Assembly (NCBI RefSeq): GCF_003790525.1
Contig: NZ_CP033635.1
DNA from: Escherichia coli
GTDB taxonomy: Bacteria > Pseudomonadota > Gammaproteobacteria > Enterobacterales > Enterobacteriaceae
Length of the DNA stretch: 64,000 bases
Direction: 5' to 3' (one strand)
The number at the start of each line of letters is the position of its first letter. The first letter of the stretch is position 1. This document shows positions 50,201 through 56,200 of the stretch, piece by piece. Made by a program: the position numbers.

Positions 50201-53200
50201 GCATCGGTGGATTTGATTATCGCATCAACGGTAGTTATTCTGATCAGGGCAATCGTGATACGCCGGATGGACGTCTGCCGAATACCAACTATCGTAACAA
50301 TAGTCAGGGTGTATGGTTGGGTTATAACTCCGGAAACCATCGTTTTGGCCTCTCGCTTGATCGCTACAGACTCGCGACACAAACTTACTATGAGGATCCA
50401 GACGGAAGTTATGAGGCATTTAGTGTCAAAATACCTAAACTTGAACGAGAGAAAGTTGGGGTATTCTATGACACAGACGTGGACGGTGACTATCTAAAAA
50501 AATTCATTTCGACGCGTATGAGCAGACCATCCAGCGCCAATTTGCCAACGAAGTAAAAACGACACAGCCTGTTCCCAGTCCGATGATTCAGGCTCTGACC
50601 GTTCATAACAAGACTGACACCCATGATAAGCAATACACTCAGGCGGTCACATTGCAGAGTCACTTTTCGCTGCCTGCTAATAATGAACTTGTTACCGGTG
50701 CACAGTACAAACAAGACAGGGTCAACCAAAGGTCCGGTGGCATGACCTCAAGCAAATCTCTGACCGGCTTCATTAATAAGGAAACACGAACTCGCTCCTA
50801 TTATGAGTCAGAGCAAAGTACAGTCTCACTATTCGCACAAAATGACTGGCAATTCGCCGATCACTGGACATGGACAATGGGAGTTCGCCAATACTGGCTT
50901 TCTTCAAAGTTGACGCGTGGTGACGGAGTATCATATACCGCAGGCATTATAAGCGATACCTCTCTTGCCAGAGAGTCTGCGAGTGATCACGAAATGGTAA
51001 CATCTACAAGCCTGCGCTATTCAGGTTTCGATAACCTGGAGTTACGCGCTGCGTTCGCGCAAGGCTACGTATTTCCCACACTCTCCCAGCTTTTTATGCA
51101 GACATCTGCGGGCGGCAGTGTCACATACGGAAATCCTGATCTTAAGGCTGAACACTCCAATAACTTTGAATTAGGTGCACGATATAATGGTAATCAGTGG
51201 CTGATTGACAGCGCAGTTTACTACTCAGAAGCTAAAGATTATATTGCAAGTCTGATCTGTGATGGCAGTATAGTTTGCAATGGTAACACCAACTCCTCCC
51301 GTAGTAGCTACTATTATTATGACAATATTGATCGGGCAAAAACATGGGGACTGGAAATAAGTGCAGAATATAATGGCTGGGTTTTCTCGCCATATATCAG
51401 TGGCAATTTAATTCGTCGGCAATATGAAACTTCAACATTAAAAACAACTAATACAGGTGAACCAGCGATAAACGGACGTATAGGGCTGAAACATACTCTT
51501 GTGATGGGTCAGGCCAACATAATCTCTGATGTTTTTATTCGTGCTGCCTCTAGTGCAAAAGATGACAGTAACGGTACCGAAACAAATATTCCGGGCTGGG
51601 CCACTCTCAACTTTGCAGTAAATACAGAATTCGGTAACGAGGATCAGTACCGGATTAACCTGGCACTCAATAACCTGACAGACAAACGCTACCGTACAGC
51701 ACATGAAACTATTCCTGCAGCAGGTTTTAATGCAGCTATAGGTTTTGTATGGAATTTCTGATGACAAAAACAATCGTTATGGAATTCTTTGTCCTGATCT
51801 GCCCGCTTTGCGGGCAGGCTAACGAACGTATTGTGTTTGTTGAAGGTTTTTCGTCGTTGTTTTCCATCTGTAGATGAATATTTATTCTTCCCGCCAGCAT
51901 GATTCTATACTCATTGCTACGACAATGACTTATAAAGCTGGCTACTGAGCCTATACCTTTGTAATTCAAAAGTGATATCAGTTCACAACGCAATACTATT
52001 TTTAGATTATTTACTCTCCCCCAGATACTGAATCAATGGATAATACCTTTTGATTTATCCCGACGCGGAAGAAGGTGGAATAAATATTCTCCTTCTATTG
52101 TCCCCTACTCCAACTATCATATTTTACAATATCAACGAACCGTCCATGCCGGGCTGAAATTCTCTTCCTGAAACAGCTCTGTCAGCCCGCTAATCTGTTT
52201 GAGCCTCAGCACTTCATCCTGATCCATGCCCAACTCTGTGCCAATACGCTCATCTGTCCAGCCCAGACGCGAAAGGTCCCTGACAATGTCAGACATTGAC
52301 GTTATCTGGTGTTTTCCCCTGGCACGGTTATGCCGTATGGTCGCGGCAATACGTGATGCCTATCCCTTTCTCTCTGGATTAATACAGGCCACTGGCAGCC
52401 AGCCCTTCAGACGTTTTCTCGTATCCGCTTTCCTGCCCAGCAACTGACGATGAAAACCATCCACTACCAGATAATGCTCCTTCTCTTCCGAAACCACCAC
52501 AGGCTGCGTGAATCCATCCTGCTCCAGTGAATGTTTAAGCAGTTTTTTTTCACTGGAAGACATGACATTGGGATTGTAATCGTTGGCCACCACCTCATTC
52601 GCTTTCACCCACAACACACAGTCCACAGGCTCCTGTGCAAAAGGGCTGACCTCATGCAACACCCTGCGCAGATGATTAAGGGCTCGTATGGTCTCTTCTT
52701 CAGATCGTTCCTGACTGAAGTACTGTCGAATCATGTTGCTCAATACTTCCACCTCAGGTGTCACAGAATCCCCCATTCCTTCCTCCTTTCTTTCATACGC
52801 TGCAGATAACGTTCATAGTGCCGGGGTTTGTTCGGACTGAAGGAGAGGGTCCGACACCAGAAATCATTCTTTATGAGTGTCTTACAGATACGTCGCCAGG
52901 ACGGGATATCCCGGCTCCCCAGGTCATTCTCCTGTTCATCCGGGATGTCATCCGGGAAGCCCCGCGTCTGATACCAGCGCAGGTAGACAGCAATTTTATT
53001 ACGGTAATGTTCTGCCGTTCTTTCCGGCATCACATCCAGCAGGAACATCGCATAGCTACGCCAGGTATGATGAGGTGGCTTCGTGATACGCTTACGCAGG
53101 GCAAAATAGGCACCGCTCTCATTGGCATAAAGCGCCCCGCTGGCAGCACCCGACACCCGCTCACACATCCTGGCCCAGGTTTCCGGCTCCAGAACATGGT

Positions 53201-56200
53201 AAAGCCACAGTCCCTTACGCTGTTCCGGGCCAAAAGGCTCACAGACCCGCATGTTGCGTAACGGCACGCCGGCACGGTACATCAGGTCATACAGGGGATT
53301 GTAGATAGCTCGGGTTCTGGCGTTATATATCCATATATCACGAGCTTTCCAGTCATACAACGGATACAAGGTGTAATAAAACCCTTCAGGTGACGCTGTG
53401 GTCCAGGGTTTATCATCTGCATATCTCAGTTTGCGCTGAGACACCAGTCCCACAAAGCGATTGAGCGATTCATCAGCACGAACACCAGTCAGTATTGCCA
53501 CTCCACACCGGTTACCGGCAAACCAGGAAGAAAATGCCGGAACAAATTCTTCAAACGTCATGGCATACCGATAAAATGGGAAGTACGACATATCTGTAAT
53601 AGCGTCATCTGGTGGCTGACGAACCCACTCCACACCTGGTTCCCAGCATATCCATTCCGGCTGAAACTGAGAGACACCGTTTACCGTAGTCAGGGGGAGT
53701 GCCACCCAGTAAAAAGTCTCCGTCACATCCCGATACATCTCCCTCATCTTCAGAATGTGTGCAATTGTGCACTGGTACTGAGCTTCCCAGTCAATGAATA
53801 ATACAGAGAAACGACGTTTCTTCCTGCGAGCCACATCGGCCGTAAGATGGAGCAGCACAGTAGAGTCTTTTCCTCCGGAAAAAGACAAACAGACAGAAGA
53901 AAATGTCTCAAACAACCACTCAATACGGTGAACGGCCGCACACAGGACATCCTCACCCGTCAGGATTTTTTTCGCGGAAAAATCATTGTTCATTCCCCTT
54001 CCCCACAGGTTCTAAAGGCTTCAAAGTAATATTGTCCGACAGCACGTTACGCCATTTATAGTACATAGCGGCAGAACCACCTGAATATGGCAAACAATAC
54101 AAACTGATATTACTCATCCTCCCACTCCTTGTTGTGTAATAGAATTCGTTTAATTTGATGATGTTATGTCAGAACGAAAGCTAACAAGATAATTTCTATC
54201 GGTATAGCCAACACACTCGATGGACCCCATATCAGGATAAAACGCTACAGTATAACCGCTGCCATACAGAGCATGGCGGTCACGAACACGGGTACCGCCA
54301 GGGTGATGACATAGTCACGTACGCGTAAACGTAAATTGTTCGCCATAATGATCAATGCATAACAATGAACGCCAGTCTTTATTTACAAAGACGCGCACCG
54401 ACAAATAACTCACTGGTAACATAGCGTACTATTTCGCATCGCTGGCCCCGGACGCGATCAAACAAATAACCAGGTAAGCCTGTGGTCTGCACGGCAGGCA
54501 TATCCGGTAAGCGAACAGTAACTCCCCGAGGCCAAAGAGTGCCCAACAGAGACAAAATGTCCTCAGGCGTATCCGTATTCAACATGGGAAAAATAGGGTA
54601 ATGCCAGAGCAGGCAGAAACTGAGAAACAATCCTGCAGGTGCTCTTAAAAGACAACTGTAAGTTTCTGACTCTTCAGACTGCTTAATCACATCATCATGC
54701 TCCGCCAGCACCGGCTTTTCAATAAACAGCGCGCGATACGGTTCCAGTTCTTTAATCCGTGCTTTCACTATCAACCACTATCAGCACGCTGGTGCAATCG
54801 TGGAAATCAAGACCAGACTCAATCTGATTGCCAAAAGCTTCACGAATAGCCCCAGTTCTTTACAACCATTCAGTTTGAGGGTATCGAAGCCGATTTCGTG
54901 CAGGGTTTTAATACCGTCGATAGCATTTGCCGGACGATCGCCGCCAACCCTACGATAATTTTATGTGCTGTCCATCACTTCTATCAACATCATTTTCTGT
55001 CCTTTGTACTACGACCATTTCCTGTTATTTGAATCAATTCAATATCGCTAGGATAAGATAATTCATAACCGTAAAGTAACCGACGCCAGACAAGAGTTGA
55101 TAACTTAGATGTTATCTGACGCAGAAGAAAAGAGAGAATTTTTGACTTTTATCAAAGACCCATTTGAACTCTTGTTTTCATGTTTTTGCATAATTGAATT
55201 TATTAAATATATTTCTCGTCAAATAACATGTTAAACGTGAGGTATATCTCCATGCTTATCATTAAAACATTAACAAACATTATGATTTAATGATTAAAAC
55301 TAATGGCAATATAAGTCAATTTAATCGCCGCATTTGTTGACAATTGCCAACATCATTTTATAACCTGATATTAAATCCAGCCGGTACATTTTTTCTAATT
55401 ACTTATGAATAAGCAGGAGGATGAGGATGTCTACGAAATTATGGGGCGGACGTTTTGATATGCCAACAAATAAACTCGTTGAACAATATAATGCAACTAT
55501 CACGCTGGAGCAGCGCCTATGCCCCTTTGATATTCAAGGAAGCATAGTTCATGCCACGATGTTAGGACGTCAGGGAATAATCACACAGGATGAAGCCAAT
55601 ACAATTATTAGAGGTTTGAGACAAGTAAGTAAAGAAATTGAAGACGGCCAATTCATTTTCGATACTGTAGATGAAGATATTCATATGGCCATTGAAAGAC
55701 GGATGACTGAAATTATTGGCCCTGTTGGTGGTAAACTCCACACGGGGCGAAGTCGTAATGATCAAACCACTGTTGATTCTAAAATGCATATGCGAGCAAT
55801 TATCCGTGAAATTCAAGAGGATATTACCAACCTGCAAAAAATAATAATTAACAAAGCAGAAAACAATATTAATGTCATCATGCCAGGCTATACTCATTTG
55901 CAAACAGGTCAGCCCATTCTTTTATCTCACTGGATTATGGCATATTACTGGATGTTGCGTCGTGACTGGAATAGGTTTGAAGATCTGTATCAACGGATGG
56001 GAGAATGCCCTTTGGGGGCAGCGGCTCTCGCCGGTACGACATTCCCTATTGATCGTAATTTTACGGCTCGTGAACTTGGTTTTGATAAGCCAACTGAGAA
56101 TAGTATTGATTCTGTCAGTGACCGCGACCATATGGTCGAATTCACCGCGGCAGCAGCGATGTGTTTTATGCATCTAACTCGCCTTTCAGAGGAACTGATT

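Follow-up and report, generated by a model that had tools for sequence, protein, structure and literature searches.

Two described gene pairs lie closest to the locus reported here, IbrA/IbrB of Escherichia coli ECOR-9 ('immunoglobulin-binding regulators'; Sandt, Hopper and Hill 2002) and the paralogues YbdN/YbdM of E. coli K-12, which share both an architecture (PAPS_reduct followed by DUF3440 in one protein, a ParB fold with DGFHR and RHNRARG motifs in the other) and an overlapping gene order. In K-12 (comparison locus L014, 4748-6570) the ybdNM operon is repressed by CitR, also called YbdO; deletion of citR raises ybdN by log2 5.5 and ybdM by log2 2.5, with the cys and flagellar regulons also going up and lrhA going down (PMC9068703). 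Examining a 64,000-nucleotide stretch of an E. coli genome (RefSeq assembly GCF_003790525.1, contig NZ_CP033635.1; hereafter the window), we find a further pair of this kind at 52132-53993 on the minus strand and show it to be a decayed copy of the known IbrAB/YbdNM cassette, lodged at the cobU-yoeA locus within a mosaic island. Compared with its ECOR-9 and K-12 counterparts, the window copy has an amber-truncated ibrB, lies at cobU-yoeA, is fused to a clbP/clbQ remnant and is unlinked to perC or citR. Taking this copy together with the family at large, we put at about 0.45 the probability of a joint reading in which the window holds a decayed cassette and the family to which it belongs may act by DNA-directed adenylation.

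The 2.3 kb around the pair match the E. coli SMS-3-5 chromosome (NC_010498.1) at 100% identity. The upstream gene, ibrA (52761-53993, minus strand), is intact and encodes a protein of 410 amino acids with a PP-loop PAPS_reduct-type domain and DUF3440; ibrB (52132-52776, minus strand) comprises 214 codons of a ParB-fold protein interrupted by an amber codon, an assignment based on translation, the RefSeq label 'internal stop', the match to PHROG 2159, family alignments and profile matches in the PDB. The ATG of ibrB (52774-52776) lies 16 nucleotides within the 3' end of ibrA, whose TGA occupies 52761-52763, and is preceded by a strong AAGGAGG Shine-Dalgarno sequence; this arrangement (overlap and ribosome-binding site together, 52761-52801, minus strand) suggests translational coupling. 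Overlap or abutment recurs in the relatives, at 16 nucleotides in the E. coli copies, 28 in ybdNM and 17 in phage PY1. An Rfam search and promoter and terminator scans around the ibrAB locus gave no match on the coding strand. The first-pass annotation of this DNA had called the two reading frames, their coordinates and the 16-nucleotide overlap correctly, as our own open-reading-frame calls and translation confirm, and the ParB and PP-loop domains that it had predicted are both present by Pfam, PHROG and profile searches.

IbrA matches Pfam PAPS_reduct (PF01507) in two pieces (E 8.6e-7 and 2e-6), DUF3440 (PF11922; E 8e-25) and PHROG 2302 (E 6e-83), whereas IbrB gives a weak match to ParB_N (E 0.0045) and a strong one to PHROG 2159, annotated 'ParB-like' (E 1e-86). 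IbrA is 92% identical to a phage gene product annotated IbrA and 82-92% identical to other IbrA alleles of E. coli and phages; against K-12 the pair shows 59% identity to YbdN and 54% to YbdM, the latter figure for an intact IbrB allele. The pair thus falls in the IbrAB/YbdNM family, which has already been described and annotated, and the comparison with ybdN/ybdM and ibrAB proposed in the first-pass annotation places it there. What we recognize as the cassette across the family is a pair of adjacent, co-oriented genes that overlap or abut, one encoding a PAPS_reduct PP-loop domain and then DUF3440, the other encoding NPN, DG[FY]HR and RHNRARG motifs and a C-terminal LGMxxDEVxRLKQ, with both reading frames intact. 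The window pair shows the gene arrangement and the IbrA domain order, and its ibrB encodes all four IbrB motifs, those from RHNRARG onward after the stop; the intact frames it lacks.

The lesion is a TAG at codon 139 of ibrB (52360-52362, minus strand), where the five other alleles compared all have CAG (Gln139), as judged against copies from MS6198, SCU-313, O145, strain 164 and a plasmid. Truncation leaves IbrB with Boxes I and II and removes the invariant RHNRARG motif and a C-terminal, helix-turn-helix-like DNA-binding segment. The gene is a pseudogene in RefSeq, and the SMS-3-5 allele also carries D60N; its ibrA differs by one residue from that of the close relative MS6198, in which the pair is intact. 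We considered a sequencing error as the origin of the stop and ruled it out: the exact 81-nucleotide stretch that contains it is present in 60 independent complete genomes, among them that of the Taiwanese urinary isolate EC1515, whose ibrB is likewise flagged as a pseudogene, and the lesion is therefore real and inherited. Because the stop precedes RHNRARG, the most conserved motif of IbrB, the IbrAB pair is almost certainly non-functional in SMS-3-5, as judged from its sequence. The SMS-3-5 chromosome has a second ibrAB-like place outside the window (two places are counted in the record), and if that copy is intact the broken one could be redundant.

The intact half of the pair tells more about the chemistry that may be at stake. 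In IbrA the PP-loop ATP-binding motif SGGKDS (residues 39-44; 53862-53879, minus strand) is 93-99% conserved in 81 family members, and in the GVRADESLNR motif (residues 170-179; 53457-53486, minus strand), which we take from knowledge of CysD and CysH to be the phosphate- or sulfate-binding motif of the PAPS_reduct clade, G170, R172, E175, S176 and R179 are each at least 96% conserved. Alignment of the 81 sequences leaves SGGKDS, D68, E70, GxRxDESxxR and YPxYDW near-invariant, along with many conserved tryptophans, and contains no conserved cysteine; the one column that reaches 84% Cys has Ala in both IbrA and YbdN. DUF3440, an all-helical C-terminal domain (approximately residues 227-410; 52761-53315, minus strand), carries a conserved SWRRICKxLxKND motif (52863-52901, minus strand). 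The closest folds are those of FAD synthase, APS/PAPS reductase and CysD, a sequence search of the PDB finding no solved structure of IbrA or IbrB. From this structural clade IbrA differs by a tryptophan-rich insertion and by its orphan DUF3440 domain; unlike CysH it has no catalytic cysteine, and unlike CysD no CysN-type GTPase partner. With no conserved cysteine, a conserved PP-loop set, CysH scores below cut-off and weak matches to PADLOC models, IbrA is best read not as a reductase or an enzyme of sulfur insertion but as a putative PP-loop enzyme of the adenylyl-transfer type that uses ATP and has an orphan C-terminal domain. One IbrA homologue (P0268, 631 amino acids) has an insertion of about 220 residues after the YDW motif that looks intein-like by eye; it is the only such case among the long homologues (more than 470 amino acids) whose sequences were inspected.

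IbrB, for its part, has a ParB fold. A profile of 22 IbrB sequences run against solved structures finds CTP-dependent Noc and ParB/Spo0J (E 3.5e-7), then SbnI and SerK, and the alignment to Noc and ParB spans the N domain into the helix-turn-helix region. Although IbrB aligns with these canonical CTPase clamps in fold and register, its DGFHR stands where they have Box II (GERRxRA) and its RHNRA where they have Box III: in the alignment to Noc, DGFHR corresponds to GERRWRA and RHNRA to ENLQR, with the Asn retained and the Glu replaced by His. In the Box II counterpart, VVDGFHR (residues 104-110; 52447-52467, minus strand), D106, G107, H109 and R110 are invariant in the 22 members; in the Box III counterpart, TIRHNRARGKH (residues 146-156; 52309-52341, minus strand), which lies 3' of the stop and is hence untranslated in SMS-3-5, T146, N150, G154 and H156 are invariant and R148, R151 and A152 at least 90% conserved. 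The invariant residues as a whole fall in N-x-Y-NPN, DG[FY]HR, T-[IV]-RHNRA-[RK]-G-x-H and LGMxxDEVxRLKQ, and IbrB proteins of E. coli and of metagenomic phages are about 45-55% identical. ParB-fold proteins bind CTP, ATP or GTP with a specificity unpredictable from sequence, and fusions of the fold to DNA-modifying enzymes, to methyltransferases and to acetyltransferases are common; the 2025 PNAS survey of the ParB-CTPase fold from which both points come mentions neither IbrB nor a PAPS reductase (PMC12704722). No ParA-type gene adjoins ibrAB in any locus examined, whether in the window, in E. coli or in phages.

The family as a whole is moderate in size, with 1,819 clusters at 50% identity (E at most 1e-3), and a phage collection shows it in phages of Flavobacterium, Mycobacterium, Streptococcus, Arthrobacter, Bacillus and others. 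Wherever a distant locus has sufficient flanking sequence, IbrA adjoins a gene for a ParB-fold protein, in either order. We quantified this in 80 viral loci from IMG/VR, representing 46 lineages at 70% identity, counting adjacency on six-frame segments: 72 of the 80 have, on the same strand and no more than 3 kb away, an IbrB-type gene. In 21 of these loci, from 16 lineages, a compact SNF2-type helicase (PHROG 62; about 413 amino acids) is encoded, mostly just upstream of ibrA (for example at 4772-6019 of comparison locus L016 and 3826-4994 of L009, and also in L071), and one Firmicutes prophage has an SNF2-IbrA-IbrB unit in its moron region, with the lysis genes on one side and the integrase on the other. 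Other neighbours include genes for a methyltransferase, an acetyltransferase, a GIY-YIG nuclease and a second ParB-like clade, and in actinophages a terminase gene lies directly downstream of the pair. We find no fusion of IbrA to a helicase or a ParB protein in the viral loci, the long open reading frames seen there being open-frame artefacts of high-GC DNA. The pairing of IbrA with IbrB and the frequent SNF2 helicase point to DNA as the probable substrate.

A further recurrent partner is a domain of about 140 residues with the motifs WxC[FY]KAGFY, CEHxL and MNR[IV]AWLGQA, found in 23 viral loci from 14 lineages either fused to the C terminus of IbrB or free-standing between ibrB and ibrA (for example L053, 4808-6019; also L045 and other IMG/VR loci among L031-L073). 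It has no match in Pfam or PHROG and no counterpart in the E. coli loci.

From these features we propose how the intact system might work. IbrB would be an NTP-binding, NTP-gated ParB-fold subunit (NTP, nucleoside triphosphate) that, bound to DNA, recruits or loads its obligate partner there; IbrA would be an ATP pyrophosphatase that shares the adenylyl-transferring PAPS_reduct clade with CysD and FAD synthase and adenylates a phosphate or base-carbonyl oxygen of DNA or of a nucleotide bound to it, with no sulfur or Fe-S chemistry involved. Phages would often add a compact SNF2 motor to the pair, and the reported activation of silent prophage genes could be a downstream consequence of activity at the level of DNA. 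A more specific version of this model, which we regard as doubtful but worth stating, is that IbrAB, with the SNF2 motor in phages, constitutes an undescribed ATP-dependent, sulfur-independent system of DNA modification or DNA-end adenylylation, in which a ParB-fold NTP switch delivers a PP-loop adenylyltransferase and the mark would be used by phages and islands as an epigenetic or anti-restriction signal, incidentally de-silencing prophage genes. Several points weigh against a DNA-directed adenylation. DNA is a less usual substrate of PP-loop enzymes than RNA or small molecules, and DUF3440 has no recognisable nucleic-acid-binding fold. Context genes differ widely from locus to locus, the E. 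coli copies of ibrAB have no SNF2 partner, and DNA-related company in phages is weak evidence, most phage genes being DNA-related. The literature that we searched on IbrA/IbrB, ybdN/ybdM, DUF3440 and PAPS reductases associated with ParB yielded no mechanistic study or biochemical data, so that the statement in the first-pass annotation that the family has no established biochemical function holds. Finally, the sole recorded phenotype, activation of prophage eib genes by IbrAB in ECOR-9, which needs both genes, is regulatory (Sandt 2002, as related in PMC7649339 and PMC8065619).

That phenotype introduces the main rival to the adenylation model, a VirB-like anti-silencing pair. IbrB would then be an NTP-switched DNA clamp that spreads from a site and lifts the silencing of horizontally acquired genes by H-NS, IbrA would be a co-activator that supplies, senses or loads the nucleotide, and no covalent change to DNA would occur; we consider such a purely regulatory pair possible, though short of probable. 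Besides eib activation, it draws on the co-induction of ibrB in Shiga toxin-producing E. coli with a PerC-family regulator encoded just downstream (PMC7649339), on the control of K-12 ybdNM by a dedicated repressor, CitR, whose loss coincides with broad transcriptome changes (PMC9068703), and on CTP-dependent Noc and ParB being the nearest solved relatives of IbrB. VirB itself is the precedent for a ParB-fold CTP switch acting as an anti-silencer (PMC10770331, PMC10676424): the Shigella protein likewise has a ParB fold and activates silenced, horizontally acquired genes (PMC10770331). VirB, however, acts alone and keeps ParB-like CTP motifs, whereas IbrB needs IbrA, has DGFHR and RHNRARG, with Box III Glu changed to His and Box II reading DGFHR and not GERRxRA, and occurs in phyla that lack H-NS, the pair being conserved in phages of Actinobacteria, Firmicutes and Bacteroidetes, some of them with neither an integrase nor a repressor gene in the stretch read. 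That the PP-loop catalytic set of IbrA is fully conserved speaks for enzymatic turnover and not for a scaffold, and the SNF2 partner is hard to account for in a regulatory pair. The logic of an NTP-binding ParB fold coupled to a DNA-acting enzyme is shared by DpdB with DpdA of the 7-deazaguanine system and by ParB-methyltransferase fusions, and SNF2-type helicases occur in Dpd clusters too (PMC10164549, PMC12704722, PMC12839542); the partner of IbrB is instead a predicted PP-loop ATP pyrophosphatase, neither a transglycosylase nor a methyltransferase, and no preQ0 genes lie at ibrAB.

The remaining alternatives fare worse. The first-pass annotation had drawn a parallel to DndC and DndB of the phosphorothioation system, in which a PAPS_reduct-clade PP-loop protein is likewise paired with a DGxHR-type ParB-fold protein, and the PADLOC DndC model does match part of IbrA (E 1.3e-3). 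The parallel stands at this superfamily level but fails at the features that define the system. DndC has 4Fe-4S ligand cysteines and a Cys dyad (PMC10853773), and the absence of a conserved cysteine from the 81-sequence alignment excludes both of these from the IbrA family, as it does the catalytic Cys of CysH; DndC lacks DUF3440, similarity between the two at the level of hidden Markov models is marginal, the DndB model finds no match, and no cysteine desulfurase (DndA), DndD/E or SspB/C is encoded nearby, the neighbours being a TonB receptor, clb remnants and argH. Phosphorothioation of the Dnd or Ssp kind, with IbrA as the equivalent of DndC and IbrB of DndB, is accordingly very improbable. 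That the pair serves anti-phage defence in this genome, whether as a complete system or as its modification component, also seems improbable, if less so. Support comes from islands in other strains: in strain 164 an ibrAB-perC cluster has Shango SngABC no more than 1.5 kb away and a NERD/UvrD candidate defence gene nearby, and in O145 such a cluster adjoins a Mokosh-like ATPase (these island neighbours lie at L005 1728-7552, L005 13499-15244 and L004 11357-14038); the moron placement of SNF2-IbrA-IbrB in the Firmicutes prophage and weak, partial PADLOC matches of IbrA to BrxP and DndC add to it. Yet the window copy is a pseudogene, no restriction or effector partner is conserved beside the pair, PADLOC-DB v2 has no IbrAB model (IbrA giving only the partial BrxP and DndC matches and IbrB none), the literature searched contains no plaque-assay data, and in phage genomes the pair adjoins packaging genes (terminase, portal), where a host-defence role would make no sense. 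Hence, of the suggestion that the pair is a DNA-modification or defence-like module, what survives is a real pairing, conserved across phyla, with DNA-related and some defence neighbours; the Dnd parallel, the lack of a PADLOC system, the regulatory nature of the only phenotype and the truncation of this copy count against it. BREX type 4 was considered on the strength of the BrxP match and rejected, that match (E 7.8e-6) covering 70 residues only and no PglZ-, BrxC- or BrxL-type BREX genes lying nearby. Least credible of all is a genuine role in sulfur assimilation, for which the RefSeq name 'phosphoadenosine phosphosulfate reductase' speaks: NCBIfam models of CysH/PAPS reductase give scores of 25-32 bits where the cut-offs are 154-254, no catalytic cysteine is conserved, the PP-loop of IbrA has the ATP-hydrolysing consensus, and the obligate partner is a DNA-binding ParB-fold protein in a family distributed over phages and islands.

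What the comparison leaves for the adenylation model and its rivals to explain is a narrower problem: no sulfur or Fe-S chemistry, a probable adenylyl-transferase-type ATP active site, ParB as an obligate partner, SNF2 as a recurrent one and the domain of about 140 residues. The window locus itself matters little, as an annotated, inherited pseudogene copy of a cassette found in about 40% of complete E. coli genomes; the pair of PP-loop enzyme and ParB-fold protein, by contrast, is strictly conserved from the K-12 chromosome (ybdNM), pathogenicity islands and virulence plasmids to phages of at least four phyla, and intact alleles are identified in MS6198, O145 and ybdNM.

Within E. coli, an ibrAB match is present in 2,242 of 5,426 complete genomes, at 2,966 chromosomal and 80 plasmid places, mostly in islands. 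Only one Escherichia phage record exceeds 60% identity, and there the pair is annotated IbrA/IbrB. The description of the family as typically prophage-borne is therefore correct only in part for the enterobacterial clade. A second allele class, at 88% nucleotide identity, occupies islands upstream of a PerC-family regulator, and another copy lies between iro and fec on a 229-kb plasmid carrying siderophore loci. Homology between the two E. coli allele classes extends as far as the ibrB stop codon on one side and, on the other, the ibrA start codon or a point within about 12 nucleotides of it; because it stops at the cassette ends, the bare two-gene cassette appears, on these alignments, to be the mobile unit of exchange. 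About 1,000 genomes of a class with 98.5% identity have different first codons of ibrA (about 18) and an IS5 element upstream.

The window has the order cobU, a remnant of insertion sequence (IS) IS4, a frameshifted yoeA-type TonB receptor, ibrB, ibrA and a clbP/clbQ fragment, whereas K-12 at the same position has the CP4-44 cryptic prophage and a truncated yoeA and lacks ibrAB; the pair, which adjoins the yoeA-type receptor beside cobU, does lie in an accessory tract at the CP4-44 site, as had been claimed. The gene for the TonB-dependent receptor (49615-51761) is orthologous to yoeA, a pseudogene in K-12; a frameshift near 50556-50583 splits it here, and it is intact in MS6198 and SCU-313. 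EC1515 combines the ibrB amber allele with the same receptor frameshift, and this sharing suggests lineage-wide decay of the island.

On the other side of the pair, 53994-54334 holds a clbP-like 3' end and the first approximately 41 codons of a clbQ-like thioesterase gene, fused 1 nucleotide upstream of the ibrA start. This fragment is 87.4% identical over 341 nucleotides to the clbP/clbQ junction of the colibactin (pks) island found in some 290 pks+ E. coli, and on the strength of that identity to the true junction is a remnant of a divergent pks-type island. Beyond it, for at least 45 kb, the DNA holds numerous IS remnants (55421-64000 of the window; 1100000-1134000 of NC_010498.1) and repeated paralogous modules for the use of aspartate, asparagine and C4-dicarboxylates: argH-like genes, several dcu-type transporters, two aspA-like genes, ansB, dcuR and a second dgo cluster.

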